From IMG/VR virus record IMGVR_UViG_3300014039_000016, positions 136,829 to 150,460 of that record: a DNA stretch of 13,632 bases, one strand, 5' to 3'. Shown here one piece after another: positions 1 to 10,290 of this stretch. Source of the DNA: a virus. The notes beneath the pieces are model-generated. The model did not search any database, was not told the DNA's origin, and saw only the letters and a list, made by a program, of their open reading frames with translations. How positions within the stretch are numbered: position 1 is the first letter of the stretch; every line of letters starts with the position of its first letter. A program made the position numbers and the translations under genes.

Positions 1-20
1 AGGAATACTTCAAATGCCAC

Positions 21-62
21 CATTGGGTTCACTACAGCGAACCGGCAAGAATCGAACTTGCC
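21..62 (-). other. tRNA-like fragment. A canonical T-arm-like hairpin (GGCAAG TTCGATT CTTGCC on the minus strand) followed by a second hairpin (GGTTC..GAACC). No complete cloverleaf could be folded.
   Basis: On the minus strand the 7-nt loop TTCGATT matches the tRNA T-loop consensus and is flanked by a 6-bp stem. The region is GC-rich relative to its surroundings, like the two tRNAs next to it. I could not find a D-arm, an anticodon arm or a matching 5' acceptor strand. It may be a tRNA remnant, an att-core-like fragment, or continue beyond the window edge. Confidence 0.25.
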
Positions 63-184
63 ACATTCTTCATTCATACCTCTACCGAACACTGAAATCT
101 CTTCGGATATGAACATTGACAGTTTTAACAAGGTAACTGACAACTGACTGTTCGGTTTTGTTTACCCAGTTCCGCGACTGGGAG

Positions 185-255
185 CTCCTCCCCTGGGAAT
201 CGGACCCAGATTCTTCGCTTAACAGGCGAGCATCCTACCTTTGAATGAGAGAGGA
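185..255 (-). tRNA. tRNA-Asn, anticodon GTT, 71 nt, no encoded CCA
   Basis: The manual fold on the minus strand works. Acceptor TCCTCTC pairs with GGGAGGA (6 Watson-Crick pairs plus 1 GU). D-arm is ATTC/AAAGGTA/GGAT. Anticodon arm is CTCGC/CTGTTAA/GCGAA with anticodon GTT and one mismatch at the 27-43 pair. Variable loop is 4 nt. T-arm is CTGGG/TCCGATT/CCCAG. Discriminator is G, as expected for Asn. The T-loop has C rather than U at position 55, which is unusual. The island is GC-rich and sits immediately downstream of promoter 283-311. Confidence 0.6.
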
Positions 256-282
256 AAAATATTTTTTTTATCTTATATAAAT

Positions 283-311
283 ATTATAACATAAATTTTT
301 ATAAAAATCAA
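283..311 (-). promoter_or_regulatory. sigma-A-type promoter, family A. -35 TTGATT, 17-nt spacer, extended -10 TGtTATAAT. Drives tRNA-Asn.
   Basis: Minus strand reads TTGATTTTTATAAAAATTTATGTTATAAT, with an exact 17-nt spacer. The sequence is nearly identical to the other family members. Confidence 0.7.
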
Positions 312-329
312 ATTACTGTTATACGACCA

Positions 330-470
330 TAAGTAATTTGGTAGTTTTAACTAGATTTCGCTAGTAGGAGATTTTGTTCTCTTGGGTAAACCGCAGCCTT
401 AGTCGCTCTCCGTTAACCTCACCCTGCATACCTTCTTTTTTATAGAGGAGAAGCATGGGTAGTAACTTAC
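330..470 (-). ncRNA. Unassigned GC-rich element driven by promoter 490-518. Candidate structured RNA, possibly a non-canonical tRNA, or alternatively a 31-aa micro-ORF.
   Basis: The promoter points into this segment. Its GC content of about 50% stands out against a roughly 28% background, exactly as the two tRNA islands do. It contains local stems such as GGGTGAG/TTTACCC and GCAG/CTGC. No T-loop motif was found and no ORF above about 31 codons. Confidence 0.25.
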
Positions 471-489
471 CTCTTTTCTTTATATAAAT

Positions 490-518
490 ATTATATCATA
501 TTTTTTTATATTTTTCAA
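490..518 (-). promoter_or_regulatory. sigma-A-type promoter, family A. -35 TTGAAA, 17-nt spacer, -10 TGaTATAAT.
   Basis: Minus strand reads TTGAAAAATATAAAAAAATATGATATAAT. Confidence 0.65.
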
Positions 519-590
519 GTTTGTATTTTATATAAAAAATATTTTATAATACTTAAATCACTTTGTCCAAAAATTTTTAAAATTCTTAAA

Positions 591-664
591 TGGACCTTCT
601 GGGACTCGAACCCAGGACCATTCGCTTATGAGACGAGCGCTCTAACCAGCTGAGCTAAAGGACC
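591..664 (-). tRNA. tRNA with anticodon CAT (elongator Met or lysidine-type Ile2), 74 nt, no encoded CCA
   Basis: Minus strand reads GGTCCTT TA GCTC AGCTGGTTA GAGC G CTCGT CTCATAA GCGAA TGGTC CTGGG TTCGAGT CCCAG AAGGTCC A. The D-arm (TAGCTCAGCTGGTTAGAGC) and T-arm (TTCGAGT loop) are canonical. The anticodon loop is CTCATAA. G1-C72 are paired, so this is not an initiator. There is one T-T mismatch in the acceptor stem and one mismatch at the base of the anticodon stem. It is preceded by promoter 761-789 with a leader of about 85 nt. Confidence 0.75.
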
Positions 665-760
665 AAAACACAAGACACAGTTATCCACAAATATCTATTT
701 TAACAGAATAGGCTTATGAGCTAAATAAGTTGCTGTCTGTATCTTATTTATTATATAAAT

Positions 761-789
761 ATTATAACATATTTTTTTATAAAAATCAA
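761..789 (-). promoter_or_regulatory. sigma-A-type promoter, family A. -35 TTGATT, 17-nt spacer, -10 TGtTATAAT. Drives tRNA-CAT.
   Basis: Minus strand reads TTGATTTTTATAAAAAAATATGTTATAAT. It abuts the stop codon of CDS 790-1446. Confidence 0.7.
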
Positions 790-1446
790 TTAAATATCAA
801 AGTAATTAATTGATGAAATACCCAAGAGTTCATAATTAATATATGAAACAGAAGTATTCCAATTATCGTAAACTCTTAAAAATCTTAAATCTTTCTGTTT
901 TCCTGTCTTATTATTCTTAACTTTAAAAGTCTCTACTCCTACTACCAAAACAGAGTGGTCTTTATAATAATTTCGTCCATCTGTAAGAAGATTTAAAATC
1001 ATTGGATATTGCATATTCTTAATATAGCTTTTAATCTTTTCAAAATTAAAACCTATAACTGGAAAACCTTTTAAAAATTTACTCTTAGCCTTATACTTTG
1101 TATTTGGTATAAACTTATCTAAAGACCTTTGTAATAACGCAGATATTACAAGAGGATTAGTACCTTTTAATTCCCCATTATAACTGCAATACTTTTCCGC
1201 AATCTCCTCGATTATTGAATAAAGTCCTTCAGTAGAAAGATGTTTTATCTGCGCAACTTCTTTAATTAAGGCTGTTGCACTAACAAGAGTACAATCATTC
1301 TTCTTACCATAGTCATTTTGGTCTAGTGCGGGAATTAGTTTTCTTCTGTTTAAATCTACTTTCTCTCGAGATATAACAGTATAACCAAGACTTGTTACAT
1401 ATCTCATTATATTATATTCATGCAAACGCATACCATTATACATCAA
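790..1446 (-). CDS. Hypothetical protein, 218 aa. Possible papain-like (C39/CHAP-like) cysteine-peptidase fold.
   Basis: ORF with an AGAGGTG ribosome-binding site 7 nt upstream of the ATG. It is the last gene of a three-gene operon. A Cys sits in NDCTLVSATAL and about 110 residues later a His sits in DHSVLVVG, an arrangement reminiscent of Cys-His papain-like peptidases. This is a weak, unverified motif call. Confidence 0.55.
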   Translation of the reverse strand: MMYNGMRLHEYNIMRYVTSLGYTVISREKVDLNRRKLIPALDQNDYGKKNDCTLVSATALIKEVAQIKHLSTEGLYSIIEEIAEKYCSYNGELKGTNPLVISALLQRSLDKFIPNTKYKAKSKFLKGFPVIGFNFEKIKSYIKNMQYPMILNLLTDGRNYYKDHSVLVVGVETFKVKNNKTGKQKDLRFLRVYDNWNTSVSYINYELLGISSINYFDI

Positions 1447-1455
1447 ACAACACCT

Positions 1456-1740
1456 CTATATCTGAAAATTTACCGCTCTTGATTTCGCGTTCATCCAGTT
1501 CTTATATTTCCTCATTGCTGTTAAAGACTTCCAACCCCATGAAACAAAAGAACCATCTTCTTTAATTGTTACGACATCTGGCTTAAAATCCTTTATCAAC
1601 ATTCTCAGAAAATCATCGACTGATATATTAAGTACTCGCGCGGGAATTACCCATTTTTCCACATTGGTAGGAAAACTACTAGTATGCTCACAATACCAAA
1701 CACCACTTGCACCTTGCCATTCTTCCAAACGATATAACAT
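1456..1740 (-). CDS. Hypothetical protein, 94 aa
   Basis: ORF with an AAGGAGGTG ribosome-binding site directly upstream. Co-oriented and closely spaced with its neighbours. Confidence 0.6.
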   Translation of the reverse strand: MLYRLEEWQGASGVWYCEHTSSFPTNVEKWVIPARVLNISVDDFLRMLIKDFKPDVVTIKEDGSFVSWGWKSLTAMRKYKNWMNAKSRAVNFQI

Positions 1741-1762
1741 TCCCGCACCTCCTTAAATTAAA

Positions 1763-2080
1763 CTAAAAATCTAAATGTAACTCCGCAGCAAGCTTCTTAA
1801 CCGCTTCCTTCTCTGCCTCTGTTGCCTGAATCTTCTGTTCTCCAACTGTTGGGAAAGCTGAAGTCTGAACTCCTGATATATTGACTGTCGCACCTGGAAT
1901 AGCTGTATCTTCTCCTGGCTCAACATTAGTCTTTGCACAAGTTAAAGTTACTTTAATCTGTACCTCAGAACCATCTTCAATCAAAGGAATCCTTATCTCC
2001 TTACCATATCTAAAAGAATTATCGAAAGTTGATAACAACTTCTCTTCAATATATGTCTTGCTACTTGCACCTTTAGCCAT
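1763..2080 (-). CDS. Hypothetical protein, 105 aa. First gene of the operon.
   Basis: ORF with an AAGGAGA ribosome-binding site 9 nt upstream of the ATG, immediately downstream of promoter 2114-2142. Confidence 0.65.
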   Translation of the reverse strand: MAKGASSKTYIEEKLLSTFDNSFRYGKEIRIPLIEDGSEVQIKVTLTCAKTNVEPGEDTAIPGATVNISGVQTSAFPTVGEQKIQATEAEKEAVKKLAAELHLDF

Positions 2081-2113
2081 ATCTTTTTATCTCCTTATCT
2101 TTATTACATATAT

Positions 2114-2142
2114 ATTATATCATAAAATTTTATAAAAATCAA
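2114..2142 (-). promoter_or_regulatory. sigma-A-type promoter, family B. -35 TTGATT, 17-nt spacer, -10 TGaTATAAT.
   Basis: Minus strand reads TTGATTTTTATAAAATTTTATGATATAAT, followed by the conserved leader ATATATGTAATAAAGATAAGGAGA. Confidence 0.7.
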
Positions 2143-3135
2143 TTATAAATATGAACGCGTTGACTTCGGATGATGTTTGATTTTACAATTGCCGCAAAGC
2201 ATATATACATGATTCAATCCCTCTATCCAATATCTATCATCGCCCGCCTTAAAGATACGACCACAATAGTAACATTCTGTTACATCTTCCATTTTTAACG
2301 GCTTCGGAACATATGAATCACCTCTATAATTGTTTGGATTAAATTTTGGATATTCCTTTGGGATATACTCATAAGTCTTATGTCTACGAAGCTTCTGATT
2401 ATCCTTTAACATAGTCTTAACTCTTTCAATAGAGTCTGACAAGAAGTTTAAATTAATCCTTTCCATATCCATATGTTCATCAAAGTACCCAACAGAAAGA
2501 TTAACTGCGGCAATGCCCCACACTGGAGCTATTGTACTTATATCTGAAAAAGTTCCTGTCTCAGTTTCCCAACCAAATGAATTTATATATTCCTCAAATA
2601 ATTTATTATCACAGCCATAGAAAACGCAATCCTTCTCTCCTCTTCTATCTAACTGAATAAGATAATCACAATCTTTATTTGGTTCTGGATAATCTTCAAC
2701 AAATGCAGATGCCCCACTTCCGCCATATTCTTCATCATGTGTAAAAATAATAACTGCGGGTAAGAGACCTGCCTGCAAGATGCTAATGATACTATAAACG
2801 CCCGCCCTGTCATCTGCACCCAGTCCGCAAGTTCCTATAATTGTTGACTTATCTTTATCATAAAACATACTTTCTCTTGTTGGTGGTAACTCAAAGACAG
2901 TATCTAAATGTGCTAATAATCCAATATGACTTTTCTTAGGATTGCTTGTCTTAGCATATATATAATTCTCTGTTTCCACTACTTTATACTTATATCCTTT
3001 TAAAAGAACAACAAGTAAATCATGTAGTTCGTACTCCTTTAAACAAAGCAAATCCACAAAAGTTCTCAAATCATCTTTAGCTTCTTTTATTTTTATATAT
3101 TCCTTATATGCCCATTCTAATCTATTCTTTGTCAT
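2143..3135 (-). CDS. Clan MH (M20/M28/M42-like) zinc metallopeptidase/deacylase-like protein with a C-terminal CxxC...CxxC zinc ribbon, 330 aa
   Basis: Motifs appear in the order expected for co-catalytic zinc peptidases: AHLDTV (His-x-Asp metal ligand), GADDRAG (bridging Asp), HDEEYGG (Glu-Glu), then later acidic and His residues. The H-to-D-to-EE spacings of about 33 and 33 residues match M20-type enzymes. The C-terminus carries CYYCGR...CGNCK. The start overlaps the stop of the upstream gene by 14 nt. Confidence 0.6.
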   Translation of the reverse strand: MTKNRLEWAYKEYIKIKEAKDDLRTFVDLLCLKEYELHDLLVVLLKGYKYKVVETENYIYAKTSNPKKSHIGLLAHLDTVFELPPTRESMFYDKDKSTIIGTCGLGADDRAGVYSIISILQAGLLPAVIIFTHDEEYGGSGASAFVEDYPEPNKDCDYLIQLDRRGEKDCVFYGCDNKLFEEYINSFGWETETGTFSDISTIAPVWGIAAVNLSVGYFDEHMDMERINLNFLSDSIERVKTMLKDNQKLRRHKTYEYIPKEYPKFNPNNYRGDSYVPKPLKMEDVTECYYCGRIFKAGDDRYWIEGLNHVYMLCGNCKIKHHPKSTRSYL

Positions 3136-3985
3136 CTATATCCTCTTTTCTTTTCTCTTTATATTCTAATCCTTTTTCTGCAAGTGACCTCGCAACATGT
3201 TCTGCGGCAATGCATATTTGACAACCTGAAGAAGTATATCCGCATCTTTTGTGACAATTTTTTCTAATCTGCCCGAAAGTAGGTATAATTGAAGAATTTA
3301 TTTCTATATTGTCCTCAGGATTGTAACCACTGATAATTAAATTTAGAGGACCTTTCCAGCTCTGTTCCTTATATATTTTATATAAAGTATTCTGTTTATC
3401 TACAGGACCAAAAAACTCCATAACATCAACACAATCTTCATAATATTTTACATCTTCTGGTCTAATAAAAAACTTAGTAATTGATTTAATGCCATCTGCT
3501 CGACTAACGCTGCTCTGTGCTACATTAGGAAACACTCTGATTTTAACCTTATTCTTGCAGATATCATATTTAATGTCAGATAGGAAAAAAGCAAGTTCAT
3601 CTGTTATATATACATCTGTAACGCCTTCAGATATATACTGATTTAGTGCATCTATTGTATTTACCTTTTCACAATAAAAGAAAGGAAGCTTATTTTCTTC
3701 TACTCTTCTCATACATTCAACTGTTCTTGATATCATAAAAGTTATATTAGGATGTATTTCATAGCACATTTTAAAAACATTAATTGTTTGTTTAAGTTCT
3801 ATAGTAATCATATGTGTAACATCCACCACAATTCTCAAATCTTGTCTTTTACTTTTTACAAAATCAATAAGCGCAGATGCGTACTTTGTAAGTATTGGAT
3901 ATTTATTAAAATCATATTTAATAATAATTTCCTGTATTTCATCTTCATATGCAAAACCTTTAAACCAATTTATAGCATAGTTCAT
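3122..3985 (-). CDS. Hypothetical protein, 287 aa, with a C-terminal Cys cluster (C-x3-C-x6-C-x2-C...H)
   Basis: ORF with an AAAGGAGA ribosome-binding site 9 nt upstream. Its end overlaps the start of the downstream gene. The C-terminal CHKRCGYTSSGCQIC cluster suggests metal binding. I recognise no fold. Confidence 0.6.
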   Translation of the reverse strand: MNYAINWFKGFAYEDEIQEIIIKYDFNKYPILTKYASALIDFVKSKRQDLRIVVDVTHMITIELKQTINVFKMCYEIHPNITFMISRTVECMRRVEENKLPFFYCEKVNTIDALNQYISEGVTDVYITDELAFFLSDIKYDICKNKVKIRVFPNVAQSSVSRADGIKSITKFFIRPEDVKYYEDCVDVMEFFGPVDKQNTLYKIYKEQSWKGPLNLIISGYNPEDNIEINSSIIPTFGQIRKNCHKRCGYTSSGCQICIAAEHVARSLAEKGLEYKEKRKEDIDDKE

Positions 3986-4012
3986 TTATCACATCTCCTT
4001 TAAGCTAAAATA

Positions 4013-4040
4013 GGGAAGAAAACATTTCTGCTTCCTTCCC
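4013..4040 (-). terminator. Weak hairpin plus T-tract between CDS 4060-4485 and CDS 3122-3985. Possible attenuator or partial terminator.
   Basis: GGGAAG(GAAG) pairs with CTTCC(C) in a hairpin, followed on the minus strand by TATTTTA. No promoter copy lies downstream, so read-through into gene 3122-3985 is expected. Confidence 0.3.
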
Positions 4041-4059
4041 TCAGAACTGAAATATTATA

Positions 4060-4485
4060 TTACTCTGCGTCAGTCTCTTCAGATACACCAGCCGCGAGTG
4101 CATATCCCATAACTCTACGAGTATCACGCTTTACCTGCTCCTTACGAGCTTCACCTATCTGAACTAGCTGTGAAAGTCTAGCACCAACCTTAGCCACTGT
4201 AAGCTCACCAGTTTCATCTGTAATCTGCTCAAAAATCTCATCTCTTGTCTGAAGCTCTTCTGTTAAAACCTTTTTAACAACCTCTCTAAGAGCATCTCCC
4301 TCAGCCGCCTTTTCTGCTGCCTTCTCCTTAGCTCTTTCCTTCTTAGCCTCAAGCTGCGCAACTGTACTATCAACATAATTAATCACATCAGAATCCTGAA
4401 CATCACCATCAAAAACCATATTTCCAATATTAGCCTTAATTGTTTCAAGAATCATTGCCTTTGTAATTTTAACTGTCTCTGCCAT
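4060..4485 (-). CDS. Hypothetical Ala/Glu/Lys-rich protein, about 141 aa
   Basis: ORF directly downstream of promoter 4530-4558. The AAGGAGAT ribosome-binding site favours the second ATG (MAETVK...). Local GC content of about 45% is noticeably above the rest of the window. The sequence is probably coiled-coil, for example AQLEAKKERAKEKAAEKAAEG. Confidence 0.6.
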   Translation of the reverse strand: MAETVKITKAMILETIKANIGNMVFDGDVQDSDVINYVDSTVAQLEAKKERAKEKAAEKAAEGDALREVVKKVLTEELQTRDEIFEQITDETGELTVAKVGARLSQLVQIGEARKEQVKRDTRRVMGYALAAGVSEETDAE

Positions 4486-4529
4486 AATCATTATCTCCTT
4501 TTTCTTATCTTTATCTTTATTACATATAT

Positions 4530-4558
4530 ATTATATCATAAAATTTTTAAGAAATCAA
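4530..4558 (-). promoter_or_regulatory. sigma-A-type promoter, family B. -35 TTGATT, 17-nt spacer, -10 TGaTATAAT.
   Basis: Minus strand reads TTGATTTCTTAAAAATTTTATGATATAAT, followed by the leader ATATATGTAATAAAGATAAAG. Confidence 0.7.
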
Positions 4559-4574
4559 TTATTCTTAAAAGTTC

Positions 4575-4617
4575 TATATATGTAAGAAAGAAGCTTTCTA
4601 TCTTTCTTACATATATA
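4575..4617 (-). terminator. 17-bp perfect inverted repeat with a 9-nt loop. Probable intrinsic terminator for the upstream operon, or an operator site.
   Basis: TATATATGTAAGAAAGA, then AGCTTTCTA, then TCTTTCTTACATATATA. On the minus strand it is followed by GAACTTTT. It sits between two tandem promoter copies, and its right arm overlaps the -10 and +1 of promoter 4617-4645. Confidence 0.45.
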
Positions 4618-4645
4618 TTATACCATAAAATTTTCTAAACTTCAA
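4617..4645 (-). promoter_or_regulatory. sigma-A-type promoter, family B copy. -35 TTGAAG, 17-nt spacer, -10 TGgTATAAT. It is embedded in the 3' end of CDS 4635-6626 and fires into the palindrome.
   Basis: Minus strand reads TTGAAGTTTAGAAAATTTTATGGTATAAT. The -35 lies within the last three codons of the 663-aa gene. Confidence 0.55.
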
Positions 4646-6626
4646 ATTTTTTAAGATTACTAAAGAAATATTTTTCAACTTCTTTTTCATCTACCTTCCC
4701 ATTATTAATAAAGGTCATTGAAGTTAATCTTGATTCATTAAATATACTACTAAGATAGTAGTAACTGTAAACATAACAATCTCTAATAAGCATCTCTTTT
4801 TTATGGTCTCTAAAATATCGTAAACATGCAGGACACATATAAAGAGGTTCTGCATTTCTGCCCTCTGGTAATAAACGAGTCTCATTAAATTCTGCTGCTT
4901 TAGGCGAAGTTCCTGCAGTGTTAGGCTTTAAATTTTCATAACAATATTTCAAATCCTTAAAACGATTCTCATATTCATAACTAATCTTGTTTTCATCTCT
5001 CCAAAAACCACAATTATACGCTTTTTGGTCAGCTTCTTTTTCTGTAAGCATATATTTCTTAACATCATCATCTTTTAAATAAAAAGCAGCAATATTCGAC
5101 TCTCTTTCTATAGGAGTTTCTCCTAAGAGAAAAGGCTTTCCGCAGCAAGGGCATATATAATAACCTTTAATGCAATTTCTACATCTCGTAACAGTGACAT
5201 CATCATTATAATCTTCATCCCATGAAGAATAATCAGAAATATCAAAAGTGAAAAGATTCTCAGGACCTACAAAATCTCCGCAATGTTCACATTTCTTAGT
5301 ATTGGAACATTCTTTACAGATTAAATCTTCCGTATTTTTATATCTATCATTCCAATCTGGCTCATCATAATCATCATGGTCAGTATCAAACTCAAGTAAT
5401 GGTTTTCCGCAACTAATACAGATAACAGGTCCTGATATATTAATCTTTCTAGTATGATGAATTGGATTGCGGACGCACCAATAACCATAATAGTTATCAT
5501 TACACATATCATTATACATAGCATTATTAGTAAAGTAAATCTTCTTTGGGATAAAGTTATTCCTATCCTTGCTATTCTCCAAATCTCTATCAATTATATA
5601 ATCATCAAGAGAATTAACATTAAGCATATCCTTATATGGCTCAATACCAAACTTATAAGTCCAACCAAGATTCTTTTCCGCCAATTCTCGGATAACTTCA
5701 ATTAACTTCTTGCTAAAAGTATCATTCTTATAAGGGTAAGACTTACCTGATACAACGATATCCTTATTAACAAAAAGTAAACTTCTCCATTTTTTATCAT
5801 TCCAAAAAGGATTGTCTTTAGCATCTGAATTATCAGATTCCAATCCCATCATTCTACTATTGCTTTCCAGATAACAACAGAGTGCATTATTAGAGTTCAT
5901 CATTTCATATGAACCAACCCTGTAACATCCGCTACGCTTCCACGACATGCAAGAAGACCAATCACTATTGTTATCACTCATAGTCATAAAGTCTAATGGG
6001 TGAATTGAAAAACAAAGATTACCCGCAAGTTCTTTCTCATTTAAAATGAGAGAAATCTTAATACGGACTTTCTCAAAGAAATCTATAATTTCCTTATCTG
6101 CGTTGCAATACTTTAATATTTTTCCAACAGCTCTGAATACTTTTGTCCCTGAAGGAATTTTTCTTTCCTTTAAAGACCCAGTATCATCAACTGGGCGCAG
6201 AAAAATATCATAATTCGTTAAATTATTAATTAATGCACGCTTTTCAAAGATATGGTCAAAAAGCGGCGGTATCCAATATCCGGCTTCATCAATACAGTGT
6301 CTTAAAGTGCTTAAAGCATCAACAGAATCCAAATAAACACTACATTCCTTTGCGATATCGTTTTCTGGTTTTTCATAATTAAATGGAATCTTGTAAATCA
6401 TCTGATTTCCAAGTAACTTATATAGAGTATTCTTACAAATACTCCACTTCTCAAGGAATTCTTTTAAAGGAATATACATTCCCTTATCTACTGGTGCGGC
6501 AATATAATCATTTATTTCATCAGACCAATGATTAATGCCATGAATACCCCATCTATAATAATACTCCGAAATCTTCTGAATATCTTCCTCCGTTAATTTT
6601 TCATATAAATCTATTCTTTCTTTCAT
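4635..6626 (-). CDS. Large hypothetical protein, 663 aa, with a multi-CxxC (zinc-ribbon-rich) C-terminal half
   Basis: Long uninterrupted ORF. Its start is coupled to the upstream gene (TAA-T-ATG) with an AAGGAG ribosome-binding site 11 nt upstream. It contains at least eight CxxC or CxC pairs, for example CISCGKP, CKECSNTKKCEHCG, CRNCIKGYYICPCCGKP and CPACLRY. I recognise no catalytic motif. Confidence 0.75.
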   Translation of the reverse strand: MKERIDLYEKLTEEDIQKISEYYYRWGIHGINHWSDEINDYIAAPVDKGMYIPLKEFLEKWSICKNTLYKLLGNQMIYKIPFNYEKPENDIAKECSVYLDSVDALSTLRHCIDEAGYWIPPLFDHIFEKRALINNLTNYDIFLRPVDDTGSLKERKIPSGTKVFRAVGKILKYCNADKEIIDFFEKVRIKISLILNEKELAGNLCFSIHPLDFMTMSDNNSDWSSCMSWKRSGCYRVGSYEMMNSNNALCCYLESNSRMMGLESDNSDAKDNPFWNDKKWRSLLFVNKDIVVSGKSYPYKNDTFSKKLIEVIRELAEKNLGWTYKFGIEPYKDMLNVNSLDDYIIDRDLENSKDRNNFIPKKIYFTNNAMYNDMCNDNYYGYWCVRNPIHHTRKINISGPVICISCGKPLLEFDTDHDDYDEPDWNDRYKNTEDLICKECSNTKKCEHCGDFVGPENLFTFDISDYSSWDEDYNDDVTVTRCRNCIKGYYICPCCGKPFLLGETPIERESNIAAFYLKDDDVKKYMLTEKEADQKAYNCGFWRDENKISYEYENRFKDLKYCYENLKPNTAGTSPKAAEFNETRLLPEGRNAEPLYMCPACLRYFRDHKKEMLIRDCYVYSYYYLSSIFNESRLTSMTFINNGKVDEKEVEKYFFSNLKKFEV

Positions 6627-6627
6627 A

Positions 6628-6840
6628 TTACATATAACTCCTTATTAAATTAACGACTCTGACTTTATCGTCCTCCATTAAATCAATATAAGCCTGATTA
6701 TCTACTATCTCCCCAATTAAAAGCTGCGGGTCCCGCCCTGCTTCTAGTGCCTGCTTACATTGACGCATTATTTCATTTGCATCATCATCGCTCTGCATAA
6801 TCATATAATCAAAGGCATCTCCCATTCCGAACATACTCAT
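6628..6840 (-). CDS. Small acidic protein, 70 aa, net charge about -8
   Basis: ORF coupled to the upstream gene through an ATGA overlap, with an AAGGAG ribosome-binding site. Asp/Glu-rich. Confidence 0.55.
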   Translation of the reverse strand: MSMFGMGDAFDYMIMQSDDDANEIMRQCKQALEAGRDPQLLIGEIVDNQAYIDLMEDDKVRVVNLIRSYM

Positions 6841-7196
6841 ACACCAAGCTCCTTTCCGCAGTACTCTTTAATGAAACTTTCATGTCCAAGATTACAAACA
6901 ATATTATCTAATTCATTAGTTTCCATATCCTTGTACTCATCTTTAATCTCATAAATGTTCCAATATAATTCCTCAGCTGAACCATCCCATTCTGGAAATT
7001 CTCCTGACTCTTCATTATAATCTGACTGAGACATCGCATATTCATCTTCAAGACCATAATTAGTAATAAGGTCATACGCCATTTCTTTACCCATAGCATT
7101 ACCTTCATCAAGAGAATTGATTTCAGTTACACACATGTCCTCAATTCCATGTAAACCCTGATACATTCCTTCAGTTGCGTAAATAAATACTTTCAT
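6837..7196 (-). CDS. Highly acidic protein, 119 aa, about 29 Asp/Glu against 6 Lys. Candidate DNA-mimic or anti-restriction protein.
   Basis: ORF with an AAGAGGT ribosome-binding site 7 nt upstream. It is the first gene after promoter 7229-7257. Its size and net charge of about -23 resemble Ocr/ArdA-type DNA mimics. This is a charge-based inference only. Confidence 0.6.
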   Translation of the reverse strand: MKVFIYATEGMYQGLHGIEDMCVTEINSLDEGNAMGKEMAYDLITNYGLEDEYAMSQSDYNEESGEFPEWDGSAEELYWNIYEIKDEYKDMETNELDNIVCNLGHESFIKEYCGKELGV

Positions 7197-7228
7197 AAAT
7201 CATACCTCTTTTCTTATTTTCTATATAT

Positions 7229-7257
7229 ATTATATCAAAAATTTTAAAAGAAATAAA
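7229..7257 (-). promoter_or_regulatory. sigma-A-type promoter, family B. -35 TTTATT, 17-nt spacer, -10 TGaTATAAT. Its -35 is formed by the U-tract of the upstream terminator.
   Basis: Minus strand reads TTTATTTCTTTTAAAATTTTTGATATAAT. Confidence 0.6.
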
Positions 7258-7280
7258 GCTGAGCTAAGTTACCCAGCTTT
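7255..7280 (-). terminator. Rho-independent terminator of the 7712-7279 operon
   Basis: 7-bp stem AAAGCTG/CAGCTTT with a 12-nt loop, followed on the minus strand by TTTATTTCTTTT. It overlaps the stop codon of CDS 7279-7500. Confidence 0.55.
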
Positions 7281-7500
7281 AATCATCAAAACCGTCATAG
7301 TAATCTTCATCATAGAATCCATCTTCATCATAATACCCATAAGCCATATAATCTTCATCATCATAGTCTTCGCGATAACATTCAGCTATCCACGGACAAT
7401 TTATACAGTTAGGACGGTCCGCGCAATTTTTACTCTGCTCTATATCTTCAGGTGGTCTCTTGGGATATTCACTAATCCTCTTTGCATCTATATCTTCCAT
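7279..7500 (-). CDS. Acidic protein, 73 aa, with a four-Cys motif and a D/E/Y low-complexity C-terminal tail
   Basis: The AGGAGGT ribosome-binding site is 6 nt upstream of the internal ATG (MEDIDAK...). The track's longer start would include that ribosome-binding site. The protein contains CADRPNCINCPWIAEC and the tail YREDYDDEDYMAYGYYDEDGFYDEDYYDGFDD. Confidence 0.55.
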   Translation of the reverse strand: MEDIDAKRISEYPKRPPEDIEQSKNCADRPNCINCPWIAECYREDYDDEDYMAYGYYDEDGFYDEDYYDGFDD

Positions 7501-7511
7501 AGTTATACCTC

Positions 7512-7712
7512 CTAACACATAATCATTGAATCAAGAATTGACTGCTCATGCATTTCCGCACATGATACAGAAGTTCCAACAGCTAAATCTTCAACATAGC
7601 AAACCTCGCCTAAGTGATTTACATACTGACCTGGTTCAAAAAACTTATCTGTAATTAAAGTATGTCTTGCTCCATTACCATTTACTAAAGTGTATTCAAA
7701 TACCATATGCAT
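7512..7712 (-). CDS. Small hypothetical protein, about 65-67 aa
   Basis: The track ORF runs up through the promoter. The real start is probably ATGCATATG (MHMVFEY...) downstream of the AGAGAGG ribosome-binding site. Confidence 0.45.
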   Translation of the reverse strand: MHMVFEYTLVNGNGARHTLITDKFFEPGQYVNHLGEVCYVEDLAVGTSVSCAEMHEQSILDSMIMC

Positions 7713-7740
7713 TACCTCTCTTTTCTTATTTTCTATATAT

Positions 7741-7769
7741 ATTATATCAAAAAATTTAAAAAATATCAA
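7741..7769 (-). promoter_or_regulatory. sigma-A-type promoter, family B. -35 TTGATA, 17-nt spacer, -10 TGaTATAAT.
   Basis: Minus strand reads TTGATATTTTTTAAATTTTTTGATATAAT. Confidence 0.65.
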
Positions 7770-8014
7770 TAGCGCACAGTAAGAATGTTAGTTGATACAT
7801 TATACGACCATGCAGCAACTAAAAACGCATTTTCATTTTCTACATACTGCGGCAATGTATATCTAATCTCCACGCCTTCTTTCTTAGCTGAGCCAAGCCC
7901 GCTCATTCTGTCTGTCTTAATTGGCACAAAACAGATGTGCATATCTGAAACCTGTACTGTTGACATGATATCTTCTACAAGAGAAGATAATATTGTTATT
8001 CTTTTTTCTATCAT
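7766..8014 (-). CDS. Hypothetical protein, 82 aa
   Basis: ORF. Its start codon directly abuts the stop of the upstream gene (TAATG). Confidence 0.5.
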   Translation of the reverse strand: MIEKRITILSSLVEDIMSTVQVSDMHICFVPIKTDRMSGLGSAKKEGVEIRYTLPQYVENENAFLVAAWSYNVSTNILTVRY

Positions 8015-8211
8015 TAATAATCATTCCTTTCATGTTTAGAATATTTTTCAAGCTTTCTGCGGCGATTGTCTACTCTTGCAGGTGCAGTTCCACGCTTAGG
8101 TAAGTACTTGCCGCAATGTTGACAAGCTTTTCTAAATGTTCCTTCTCTGCCTTTTGAGCATTGACCTTCACAAATATAATACTGACATATTATTTCTCTA
8201 TCTCTTGCCAT
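8015..8211 (-). CDS. Small basic zinc-ribbon protein, about 65 aa
   Basis: A GAGGT ribosome-binding site lies 7 nt upstream of the internal ATG (MARDREII...). It contains CQYYICEGQC...CQHCGK, then a Lys/Arg-rich tail. A nucleic-acid-binding role is possible. Confidence 0.5.
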
Positions 8212-8221
8212 TATAATTACC

Positions 8222-8680
8222 TCACTTTTCATATTTTTTTATTAAATCATTAGTTTCATCTTTGATAGGTGATAAAGGGTTATAGTCTTTATCCCACTTA
8301 ATCTCTAAATTAGTAATTATTCCTCTTAAACGATAACTATAAAATAAATAATCAAAATTCCAATATCCGCCATAAATTGCATCAGTATATAATACTTTAT
8401 ATCCTTGTACTTCATACTTCTCTAACAAGGTTAAAAATAAATCAAATTGTTTCTTATATTTTAAGTATTTTTTAGAGTTTTTATTTATCTCATATGAGAC
8501 ACCTCTATCAAATACTAATAAACGATTAATAAGGAGACTCTGCTCATTAATATCACAAGCTGAAAGAATTTCATTATCTATTTTTTTCTCCCATTTTTTC
8601 AGAAAATGCTTGTCTGCTCTTGTTAGAGTTACCTCACTATTTTCCTGAGATAATCTTTGTGCAGTATGTAGCGATATCAT
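8222..8680 (-). CDS. Hypothetical protein, 152 aa
   Basis: ORF with an AAGAGGTG ribosome-binding site. First gene after promoter 8714-8742. Confidence 0.6.
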   Translation of the reverse strand: MISLHTAQRLSQENSEVTLTRADKHFLKKWEKKIDNEILSACDINEQSLLINRLLVFDRGVSYEINKNSKKYLKYKKQFDLFLTLLEKYEVQGYKVLYTDAIYGGYWNFDYLFYSYRLRGIITNLEIKWDKDYNPLSPIKDETNDLIKKYEK

Positions 8681-8713
8681 ATTTATTCACCTCTTTCTCT
8701 TTTCTATATAAAT

Positions 8714-8742
8714 ATTATATCATATTTTTTTATAAAAATAAA
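8714..8742 (-). promoter_or_regulatory. sigma-A-type promoter, family A. -35 TTTATT from the terminator U-tract, 17-nt spacer, -10 TGaTATAAT.
   Basis: Minus strand reads TTTATTTTTATAAAAAAATATGATATAAT. Confidence 0.6.
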
Positions 8743-8763
8743 GGAGGCATAAAAGCCTCCTTT
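8740..8763 (-). terminator. Rho-independent terminator of the 10226-8773 operon
   Basis: 9-bp GC-rich stem AAAGGAGGC/GCCTCCTTT with a 6-nt loop, followed on the minus strand by TATTTTTAT. Confidence 0.65.
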
Positions 8764-8772
8764 CCGCACATT

Positions 8773-9150
8773 TTATTTAATGAATATTCTTAATATCTGT
8801 AGTATAATATTTAGTATACCCGCGATAATTAATAATAAATAAAAACAATTTATACTCTTGATTTCTTTTTTCTTGTCCTCTTTTTTCTCATAAACAAAAG
8901 ATAATATCAAAAAAATAACTGCTGCGAGTGCAAGACATAAAATTAAAATTGCTATAATCCAGAAAATAACTTTTAATACTAACAAGTGTCCTCCTTCCAC
9001 AGACTCTACTAAAGCTGAGAATCCTATAAAATATGTCCAAATCGCAAATAAAAAATCAAATATTCTTTCTCCTCGATTTTTTAAGATAACTGTTACTGCA
9101 ACACCTGCAATAAAAATTATAATACATGACAATTTTATCCAAAATTCCAT
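8773..9150 (-). CDS. Integral membrane protein, 125 aa, about four predicted TM helices
   Basis: ORF with an AAGGAGGT ribosome-binding site. Long hydrophobic stretches are separated by short charged loops. Confidence 0.6.
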   Translation of the reverse strand: MEFWIKLSCIIIFIAGVAVTVILKNRGERIFDFLFAIWTYFIGFSALVESVEGGHLLVLKVIFWIIAILILCLALAAVIFLILSFVYEKKEDKKKEIKSINCFYLLLIIAGILNIILQILRIFIK

Positions 9151-9163
9151 CTATTTTACCTCC

Positions 9164-9310
9164 TTAATCCATAAATGTAAAAAAACAATATAAAAACATG
9201 AAAATAAAAATTGTAACTAATAGAATTAAAGGTTTATTTATTATAACACAAAATACTATTATAGCAATAATAATTAGAGTTATAATTATTAATAATGTGC
9301 TATCGTCCAT
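9164..9310 (-). CDS. Small hydrophobic membrane peptide, 48 aa. Not in the ORF track.
   Basis: ATG preceded by an AAAGGAGT ribosome-binding site. Sequence is MDDSTLLIIITLIIIAIIVFCVIINKPLILLVTIFIFMFLYCFFTFMD. It packs tightly between its neighbours. Confidence 0.4.
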   Translation of the reverse strand: MDDSTLLIIITLIIIAIIVFCVIINKPLILLVTIFIFMFLYCFFTFMD

Positions 9311-9324
9311 AATCTATACTCCTT

Positions 9325-9498
9325 TTAATTTCCAACATAACCTAAACTAAAGCCCATTATAAACATTAATGAAGCTACTGCTAAACCAGTTGAGATTTTA
9401 TATACAATTTCATTTGTTGTTACACAACTTATGGTATAACAAATTAATAACATAATGATACTAATTATTATACCTATACCTAACGCCGCACTCTCCAT
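9325..9498 (-). CDS. Small hydrophobic membrane peptide, 57 aa. Not in the ORF track.
   Basis: ATG preceded by a GGGAGGT ribosome-binding site. Sequence is MESAALGIGIIISIIMLLICYTISCVTTNEIVYKISTGLAVASLMFIMGFSLGYVGN. Confidence 0.4.
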   Translation of the reverse strand: MESAALGIGIIISIIMLLICYTISCVTTNEIVYKISTGLAVASLMFIMGFSLGYVGN

Positions 9499-9521
9499 GT
9501 ATTTCTACAACCTCCCATAAA

Positions 9522-10226
9522 TTATAAATATTCATTCCAGCCTGAAAAGTCAAGAATAATAGGGTCGCCATTTTCTCTGAAACCAATATTACCATTATGT
9601 AAATCTTCAACTACATTAGGAAATTCACTTTCTAAGAAGTCAATAAGTTTATCAACCATAGCCTTTCCATATCTTTCAATAGCAGCAGCAACCCATGAAG
9701 AATCTGCAAAACAATAATATTTTGAATCTGAATTAACAAAATTTAATGTTTCATCTTCTGAGACAGGACAATATTCATAGAAGTCTAATACTCTTTCCTG
9801 TTTGATAACAGTACCAGACTCACATTCTCCCATAATCTCTGTTTTTGGGAAAAAGATATCTAAACCATTCTCTTTTGCAGCTTCATAAACCTCATATTCT
9901 GTTAAACAATAGTCCCAACCTCGGTCCTCAGAATTGTCTGCGCCTCTAAATCTTGTAAAATAATCGTGGTCTACTGATTCATCATAATCCCACTTACCAG
10001 AATAAGGAACTTTGAGAACAGAGCTGCAGCCGGAAACAACAGCAACAGCCTTAGTTGCACCACGATATGCGCCGCCTGCAATCTTAGCATCTTTTAAAGC
10101 TTCTGAAATTAAAATTGTATTTTCTTCATCATCTTCATCATCGTCCCAGCCAAATTTCTCAGGAACTTTCTTTACAATTTCATTAAACACTTTTGTTAAT
10201 TTATCTTCTAATAATAATGTTGCCAT
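9522..10226 (-). CDS. Hypothetical protein, 234 aa, with an acidic N-terminal region
   Basis: ORF with an AAGAGGT ribosome-binding site. First gene after promoter 10262-10290. Confidence 0.65.
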   Translation of the reverse strand: MATLLLEDKLTKVFNEIVKKVPEKFGWDDDEDDEENTILISEALKDAKIAGGAYRGATKAVAVVSGCSSVLKVPYSGKWDYDESVDHDYFTRFRGADNSEDRGWDYCLTEYEVYEAAKENGLDIFFPKTEIMGECESGTVIKQERVLDFYEYCPVSEDETLNFVNSDSKYYCFADSSWVAAAIERYGKAMVDKLIDFLESEFPNVVEDLHNGNIGFRENGDPIILDFSGWNEYL

Positions 10227-10261
10227 ATTTATATACCTCTTTTCCTTTTCTTTATATAAAT

Positions 10262-10290
10262 ATTATAACATAATTTTTTACAAAAATAAA
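10262..10290 (-). promoter_or_regulatory. sigma-A-type promoter, family A. -35 TTTATT, 17-nt spacer, -10 TGtTATAAT.
   Basis: Minus strand reads TTTATTTTTGTAAAAAATTATGTTATAAT. Confidence 0.6.

Follow-up and report, generated by a model that had tools for sequence, protein, structure and literature searches.

[quoted passage not shown] For these transcripts of the tRNA region, which also go by the name of species 1 and 2 RNAs, no role is known (PMC3014915, PMC9697503). In the kayviruses (Herelleviridae) the very highly expressed non-coding RNA regions lncRNA1 and lncRNA2 adjoin tRNA genes (PMC7698491, PMC10383478). One such tRNA-adjacent region lies under a typical early promoter (PMC7698491), and the two RNAs are reported to be ROOL/GOLLD-like, with no function assigned (PMC7698491, PMC10383478). 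As to leader sequences, a passage in PMC7509114 that cites Hue et al. 1995 describes Shine-Dalgarno (SD)-dependent stabilisation of RNA without translation in Bacillus subtilis, including that of an RNA of the SPO1-like phage SP82.

The element described here is placed within a phage tRNA gene region, between tRNA-Met and tRNA-Asn. It appears to be a genuine, well-delimited, promoter-driven non-coding unit and, as far as can be judged from sequence, a reasonable candidate for an orphan small RNA. An earlier note on this DNA had proposed a novel structured non-coding RNA at positions 330-470. The negative part of this proposal has stood: the element belongs neither to the tRNAs nor to any described RNA family, and a protein gene is very improbable. 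Its structure is a prediction, with no compensatory pair found in five near-identical variants.

Genomic setting

The window, i.e. the whole stretch of 13,632 nucleotides that was analysed, is phage-like and AT-rich (31% GC). On its minus strand small genes are tightly packed, with a near-identical promoter cassette before each of them, and everything that the earlier note had described reads on this strand. One window protein has its best cultured matches in ~140-kb Enterococcus phages, with 42% amino-acid identity, and metagenomic contigs of 145-151 kb contain the same sequence as the window. Samples in which the phage occurs include ERZ808287, ERZ28614167, SRR1747055 and IMG 3300045988. The source is probably an uncultured, Herelleviridae-like phage of ~150 kb with a host among the Bacillota (Firmicutes). 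The window also encodes a 663-aa cysteine-rich protein with many CxxC pairs (4635-6626, minus strand), for which no match was found in Pfam or PHROG, nor by tblastn in 50,697 phage records.

The tRNA array of a relative (L003) comprises 21 tRNAs. In the window, tRNA-Met lies ~90 nt downstream of its own promoter; the intervening leader (666-754, minus strand) folds weakly (z = -1.33), and part of it (674-738), which the mitochondrial mode of ARAGORN calls a degenerate tRNA-Asn, may be another decayed tRNA. Just beyond the left end of the window (L005 4987-5277) the array contains a gene for a 96-aa protein with the cyclic-phosphate processing receiver domain cREC_REC (PF20274). Its homologues number in the hundreds; some lie on very large contigs, the largest of 450 kb, and some are labelled as Lachnospiraceae MAGs. 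These findings hint at RNA repair as the context of the gene and at the group to which the host is likely to belong. The features of the element and its immediate neighbours are as follows.

590..665, minus strand: tRNA-Met(CAT), the upstream neighbour, with its own promoter at 789..761
541..569, minus strand: second, weaker promoter-like site, TGGACA-17-TAAAAT, 10 of 12 positions
518..490, minus strand: promoter of the sigma-70/sigma-A type, TTGAAA (518..513), 17-nt spacer, extended -10 TGaTATAAT (498..490)
~483..306, minus strand: candidate small RNA, inferred transcription unit of ~175 nt, ends placed from promoter and hairpin positions
481..469, minus strand: purine-rich, Shine-Dalgarno-like leader AAAGAAAAGAGGT, like the 5' UTR of phage protein genes
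461..420, minus strand: predicted 5' hairpin UACCC-A-UGC ... GCA-GGGUG, which would sequester an AUG (456..454) and includes the pyrimidine run CUUCUCCUCU
456..361, minus strand: 31-codon ORF, MLLLYKKEGMQGEVNGERLRLRFTQENKISY followed by a stop, judged not to be a gene
384..424, minus strand: GC-rich core of 41 nt, 58.5% GC, with the helix GGGUGAG (424..418)/UUUACCC (390..384)
381..350, minus strand: two small predicted hairpins, GAGA-ACAAAA-UCUC (381..368) and ACUAG-CGAAAU-CUAGU (365..350)
346..340, minus strand: AACUACC, 3' strand of a predicted 7-bp closing stem with its partner GGUAAGUU at 471..464
340..300, minus strand: A/U-rich hairpin (340..309) followed by the U-tract UUUGAUUUUUAU, a weak terminator-like end
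255..184, minus strand: tRNA-Asn(GTT), the downstream neighbour, with its promoter at 311..283

Promoter and leader

The promoter at 518..490 matches the consensus at 11 of 12 positions, including the -10 sequence TATAAT (495..490), and in addition has TG at 498..497. The earlier note had described a full-consensus promoter; a strong promoter is indeed present, although it is near-consensus only, and its stated distance of 20 nt from position 470 was confirmed on the minus strand. From the position of the promoter, transcription would start at ~483-485. Across five genomes only one of 36 promoter columns varies. The weaker promoter-like site is situated ~50 nt upstream, in an AT-rich spacer that is kept in relatives.

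Promoter-like matches as such are not in excess in the region (8 found vs 7.2 expected from shuffles). The 16-mer TATAATATTTATATAA, however, occurs in the window in 10 copies with at most two mismatches vs 0.44 expected. Every copy reads on the minus strand; downstream sequence was checked for eight of them, and all eight are followed by genes or tRNAs. The promoter cassette of the element, common to nine other transcription units in the window, is on this sequence evidence clearly non-random. The ten early-type promoters form a family (273-10267, minus strand) with the pattern TTGAnn-17-TGnTATAATAT(T/A)TATA. Logan contigs stop directly 3' of the peptidase gene that neighbours the element, and the promoter repeats therefore probably break short-read assemblies; the repeats may also be recombination points for cassette shuffling.

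Two classes of initial transcribed sequence follow these promoters: a purine-rich SD leader before protein genes, and GATA/TAAATAAGATA before tRNAs. The promoters of protein genes run on into AAGAAAAGAGGT, 7-8 nt and an ATG, which the two tRNA promoters do not. The element has the leader of the protein-gene class, a point missed in the earlier note. The purine tract of its transcript at 481..469 reads AAAGAAAAGAGGU, and the same type of leader is found before the genes at 10226, 8680, 7196 and 7769, whereas it is absent at the two tRNA promoters. The leader is invariant in five genomes, and no properly spaced start codon lies behind it. As read from the sequence, this SD cassette is a feature that needs explaining if the product is a non-coding RNA.

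Base composition and predicted structure

The earlier note had based its case in part on a GC content of about 50%. This figure is wrong: positions 330-470 have 40.4% GC, and only the 41-nt core (384-424) reaches 58.5%. The GC argument for a non-coding RNA was also overstated, since ~9% of all 141-nt windows of the sequence, coding ones included, are at least as GC-rich as 330-470. It is only against its own promoter flanks, which have 5-10% GC, that the element stands out as a sharp GC island.

The complementary stretches that had been pointed out, GGGTGAG (424..418)/TTTACCC (390..384) and AGAGG/CCTCT, are present, and the folds predicted for the element are better than chance, albeit only modestly so (z from -0.73 to -2.46). 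The 5' hairpin at 461..420 has a predicted energy of -13.2 kcal/mol (z = -2.46, matched by 3 of 200 shuffles), whereas the GGGTGAG/TTTACCC hairpin reaches only z = -0.73. The core also holds an inner hairpin, AGC-GACUAAG-GCU, and its GGGUG(AG) segment has two alternative partners, the upstream UACCC and the downstream UUUACCC. The predicted closing stem (471..464/346..340) would enclose four hairpins in a multibranch fold of 133 nt (z = -1.86; 10 of 200 shuffles as good). The whole unit has z = -0.98. These scores neither prove nor exclude structure, because the two genuine tRNAs next to the element reach only about -0.7 in the same folding test.

At the 3' end a 13-bp interrupted stem is predicted (-8.1 kcal/mol, z = -2.64, matched by 4 of 200 shuffles). 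This hairpin, at 340..309, was not called by a strict terminator scan that required at least three G-C pairs, and its 3' arm overlaps the -35 sequence (311..306) of the tRNA-Asn promoter.

Known RNA classes

No tRNA or tmRNA was found in the element by ARAGORN in default, lowered-threshold, intron and mitochondrial modes, so that the absence of a tRNA fold asserted in the earlier note holds even under relaxed settings. Rfam 15 (4227 models, including ROOL, GOLLD, tmRNA, 6S, Y-RNA-like RNAs and riboswitches) gave nothing at the gathering score; this search, which the earlier note had proposed, returned no family match in positions 250-600 up to E = 10 either, the tRNA clan included. In the relatives L003, L004, L008 and L016 Rfam detects tRNAs only.

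A decayed tRNA was also rejected as an origin of the element: its best local alignment to 76 tRNAs of phage arrays scores 18, below the shuffle mean of 20.7. A mimic of a CRISPR repeat, as suggested by a stem followed by AAGAGAAC, was also considered; no repeat-like periodicity is seen. Among the available phage transcripts no antisense target stands out, complementary 10-11-mers occurring at or below shuffle frequency.

Coding potential

The longest ORF of the element has 31 codons (456..361, minus strand) and, as the earlier note had stated, a poorly spaced ribosome-binding site. The distance from GAGGT to ATG is 12 nt (13 in L016), compared with 5-9 nt, and once 11 nt, in 19 phage genes with a recognisable SD sequence, all expressed in terms equivalent to the end of GAGGT. 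Its AUG is predicted to be paired within the 8-bp stem of the 5' hairpin. The codon log-likelihood of the ORF is -0.33 bit per codon, whereas windows of real genes have a mean of +0.33 (sd 0.15, minimum -0.10), and none of 3014 in-frame 29-codon windows of phage genes is as low. Ten of its codons each have at most 12% of the usage in their codon family, and no reading frame stands out.

In L016 a T is inserted in the start of the ORF (ATG to ATTG), which recreates an in-frame TTG start. The six substitutions within the ORF, three synonymous and three non-synonymous, are too few to decide. The ORF has never been called as a gene and no gene with such a product is on record; phmmer found no match at E ≤ 0.001 among 1.84 billion representative proteins, a search that has little power with a query of 31 residues. 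Judged by these sequence properties, it is very improbable that the ORF is a gene. A leader-peptide attenuator that senses rare codons was considered and rejected: the 21 tRNAs of the phage do not match the rare Leu and Arg codons of the ORF, and the alternative pairings leave the terminator hairpin uninvolved.

Homologues and conservation

Homologues were reached via the two neighbouring proteins, those of a C39-like peptidase gene and of the cREC_REC gene; the hunt for more diverged homologues yielded only five near-identical variants. These five sequence variants are from independent metagenomes, namely the window (L005), L001, L002, L008 and L016, and all contain the unit together with its promoter and 3' hairpin. 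They are 96-98% identical, with 12 variable columns out of 182, and all differences are transitions except for one insertion.

The earlier note had held that a lack of conserved covariation among homologues would speak against its candidate, and formally this is the outcome: with RNAalifold on the five variants, a double change is seen at none of the 49 predicted pairs, with only 12 variable columns available. The missing covariation is due to low divergence and is not evidence against structure. Seven substitutions fall in paired columns, four of which keep and three of which break the pair, a proportion much as expected of transitions at random. Unpaired columns contain the remaining five changes, one of them the insertion, so that the split between paired and unpaired columns is close to chance. 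The individual changes are of mixed effect. The 5' half of the 5' hairpin (461..427) is invariant save for the T insertion in L016, which enlarges a bulge, and a G to A change at 426 in the 3' arm in L002 breaks the innermost C-G pair. The T to C change at 390 in L016 turns the last G-U pair of the core helix into G-C, yet breaks a pair of the alifold structure. In the hairpins at 381..368 and 365..350 changes are confined to the loops, with no covariation, and the C to T change at 341 in L008 and L016 converts a pair of the closing stem to G-U.

The changes are unevenly distributed along the RNA, the first 59 nt having no substitution vs 11 in the other ~120 nt (estimated p ~ 0.01-0.02). Between pairs of variants the element differs by 2-5%, whereas the peptidase gene 300-650 nt away differs by 13-19% at its third codon positions (p = 1e-8 to 1e-2). 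This low divergence is nevertheless not clean evidence of selection, because in the closest pair, L001/L002, the element has changed at about the same rate as the neutral third positions of the peptidase gene (3.3% vs 3.7%), conservation of the adjoining AT-rich spacer is close to that of the element, and downstream of tRNA-Asn the genomes fall into other groupings. The sequence comparison suggests, for the block containing the element, a probable history of its own that is recent and mosaic.

Distribution

Scans of IMG/VR with four DNA patterns revealed no other contig with the element, and it was not found in JGI metagenomes with one pattern scan or in GTDB genomes with degenerate patterns. 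Protein-anchored scans of metagenomes and GTDB yielded no further element. Searches by blastn (11-nt words) against 50,697 phage records and 72,556 plasmids gave no match at E ≤ 1, and nhmmer and a covariance model, applied to another 475 kb in 49 loci that are for the most part tRNA arrays from related large phages, gave self-matches only. From its absence in the other collections and the 49 loci it follows that the element is young and dispensable at the family level. A host- or plasmid-derived fragment was considered and dropped, given no phage or plasmid match at E ≤ 1 and nothing in GTDB with degenerate patterns.

Other modules in the tRNA array

Two further features are found in these arrays.

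1-183, minus strand (L001 5421-6049; L016 2362-2430): stretch following tRNA-Asn
junction at ~589/590 (L001 4851-5020): ~170-nt module with the 3' end motif TTAGGGCGGCAACCTGCCGATAACAAATAGCC
L017 5120-5160 and 5420-5460: near-copies of the 3' motif of this module

The stretch following tRNA-Asn is ~630 nt long, has 44% GC and no ORF, and its first 183 nt are in the window. It contains a T-arm-like hairpin, GGCAAG-TTCGATT-CTTGCC (58..40, z = -2.36), with true compensatory changes to GGTAAG/CTTACC in L008 and AGTGAG/CTTGCT in L001; the hairpin is more divergent than the element. Part of the stretch scores as a tRNA in L016 only (36.6 bits), and it is Rfam-negative, ROOL and GOLLD included; it probably consists of odd or decaying tRNAs or of a larger structured RNA.

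The ~170-nt module is located between tRNA-Met and the promoter of the element in all four relatives and is absent from the window. In a 156-kb phage that is more distantly related, near-copies of its 3' motif, CTTAGGGTTGCAACCTCATGATAAGAAATAGCT and CTTAGGGTGGCAACCTTGTGACGAAAATAGCT, directly precede tRNA-Gly and tRNA-Pro. This recurring non-tRNA motif has no Rfam match in the close relatives that were scanned.

Interpretation of the element

In the most likely reading, to which we give a probability of about 45%, the element is a young and lineage-specific gene on the minus strand for a small, untranslated non-coding RNA of ~175 nt, with transcription independent of its neighbours. This reading is supported by the shared promoter cassette, by the retention of the unit in all five variants while the neighbouring 170-nt module varies, and by the evidence that disfavours coding, i.e. 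the codons, the SD spacing, the paired AUG, the altered start in L016 and the lack of homologues. The failure to match tRNAs or tRNA relics, the substitution-free first 59 nt, the low pairwise divergence and the precedents in T4, the kayviruses and SP82 also speak for it. It is weakened by the lack of covariation, the modest z-scores (-1 to -2.6), the confounded divergence, the narrow distribution and the lack of above-chance complementarity to phage transcripts, and also by the SD-type leader, which is what a protein gene would have.

If the element is such an RNA gene, the host sigma-A RNA polymerase would start at the early-type promoter that is seen in the sequence at 518..490, and termination would take place at the A/U-rich hairpin with its U-tract (340..300). 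Transcription may instead read through into tRNA-Asn, with release of the RNA by an RNase P cut at the 5' end of the tRNA. The RNA would remain untranslated, with an AUG placed 12-13 nt from the SD sequence and in a predicted stem, at the head of an ORF made up of the rarest codons of the phage. By analogy with the SD-type stabilisers of B. subtilis, the purine-rich leader could be a ribosome-binding 5' stabiliser. The stable RNA might then act in trans by base-pairing or protein binding, and one may speculate that its likeliest functional surface is the invariant 5' third with the pyrimidine run CUUCUCCUCU. A more specific proposal, which we regard as unlikely, is that of a new phage regulatory or decoy RNA with an early promoter and a non-initiating SD-type leader, in which the anti-SD-like CUUCUCCUCU titrates or pairs with ribosome-binding sites of the host or the phage, or the 5' domain binds a host factor of defence or RNA processing. 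If this were true, RNA cassettes flanked by promoters would arise, and be short-lived, in the tRNA arrays of large Bacillota phages, which would act as their nurseries; the second, unrelated module and the recurring motif in the same arrays are in line with this view.

The main rival, and a serious one even if we find it doubtful, is a transcribed but functionless spacer or relic, in which a duplicated or leftover early-gene promoter and 5' UTR cassette drives GC-richer leftover DNA. Such a relic would at most add read-through into tRNA-Asn, and its conservation would reflect the recent shared ancestry of the block. This would account for a protein-gene leader without a usable ORF behind it, for the absence of covariation at all 49 predicted pairs and for the narrow distribution. 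It also agrees with the neutral-like change between the closest genomes, the equally conserved AT-rich spacer, and a tRNA array that visibly holds decaying material and indel modules. An unconstrained relic should, however, drift towards AT, and the persistence of the 58% GC core and of a 95-nt stretch with 46% GC between flanks of 5-10% GC, in a genome of 31% GC, therefore counts against it. Nor would a relic be expected to show an invariant 5' part of 59 nt while the rest varies, or to be kept in five of five genomes though the neighbouring module comes and goes, and no similarity to a tRNA, a protein or a known sequence names its source.

The SD-like leader could alternatively serve the AUG at 456 in a micro-gene for a hydrophilic early peptide of 31 residues, which we judge to be quite improbable. 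The promoter and the AAAGAAAAGAGGT leader are of the same type as those of neighbouring early protein genes, and the insertion in L016 recreates an in-frame TTG start; yet the spacing of 12-13 nt is beyond the range of all 19 genes compared, and the AUG lies in a predicted stem. Three of six ORF substitutions are synonymous, including the series CTG to CTA to TTA that retains Leu (crude dN/dS ~0.3), but by our calculation this is expected ~26% of the time under neutrality, and an open frame of 31 codons has a chance of ~13% per frame at the given composition. The codon usage is below that of every real-gene window, with ten codons at or below 12% of their family, the frame was never called as a gene, and the search of 1.84 billion proteins gave no homologue. 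A DNA-level or co-transcriptional element, such as a protein-binding site or a promoter-primed R-loop replication origin, is highly improbable, with nothing specific in support. For the R-loop origin the layout would be a strong promoter, a G-rich transcript segment and an AT-rich unwinding region. The core transcript GCAGGGUGAGGUUAACGGAGAGCGACUAAGGCUGCGG has ~17 G vs 6 C and is followed by more than 80 nt of DNA with 5% GC, a layout which we take to resemble that of T4 and ColE1-type origins. The window shows no replication genes, iterons or skew switch in association with it, however, and spacers in the tRNA arrays of these phages are generally AT-rich and contain promoters.

Comparison with known systems

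The immediate value of the element is limited to that of one orphan candidate in an uncultured phage. Small RNAs from phage tRNA regions have been known since RNAC and RNAD of T4 and are among the most abundant transcripts of kayviruses, yet to none of them has a function been assigned. A compact, separately promoted unit that can be compared with relatives that do not have it would be a convenient handle on the function of tRNA-array RNAs, and it would also exemplify a natural SD-like leader on a non-coding RNA.

As regards the early host-takeover micro-genes of SPO1-like phages, the element has the promoter type and the cassette of 5' UTR and SD sequence of the small early genes in the window, but its ORF fails the tests of spacing, codon usage, accessibility and homology. 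A strong purine-rich SD sequence near the 5' end without a productively placed start codon is shared with the SP82 polypurine and ermC-type stabilisers, as far as the passage in PMC7509114 describes them; this likeness would cover the leader alone and not the function of the RNA body.

Like RNAC and RNAD of T4, which are neither tRNA nor mRNA, the candidate would be a small RNA among phage tRNA genes. It has no sequence similarity to the T4 pair (blastn, 50,697 phage records, E ≤ 1), and in contrast to these RNAs it has its own promoter and a terminator-like end; the hosts and phage families also differ. With lncRNA1 and lncRNA2 of the kayviruses it has in common a phage that is probably Herelleviridae-like, a probable non-coding nature, a position adjacent to tRNA genes and, with one of them, an early-type promoter. 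The kayvirus RNAs are, however, 525-570 nt long vs ~175 nt for the element, which has no ROOL or GOLLD match at E ≤ 10. Although it differs in sequence, size and Rfam membership, the element appears from its sequence context to be of the same location and kind as the tRNA-array small RNAs of T4 and the kayviruses.
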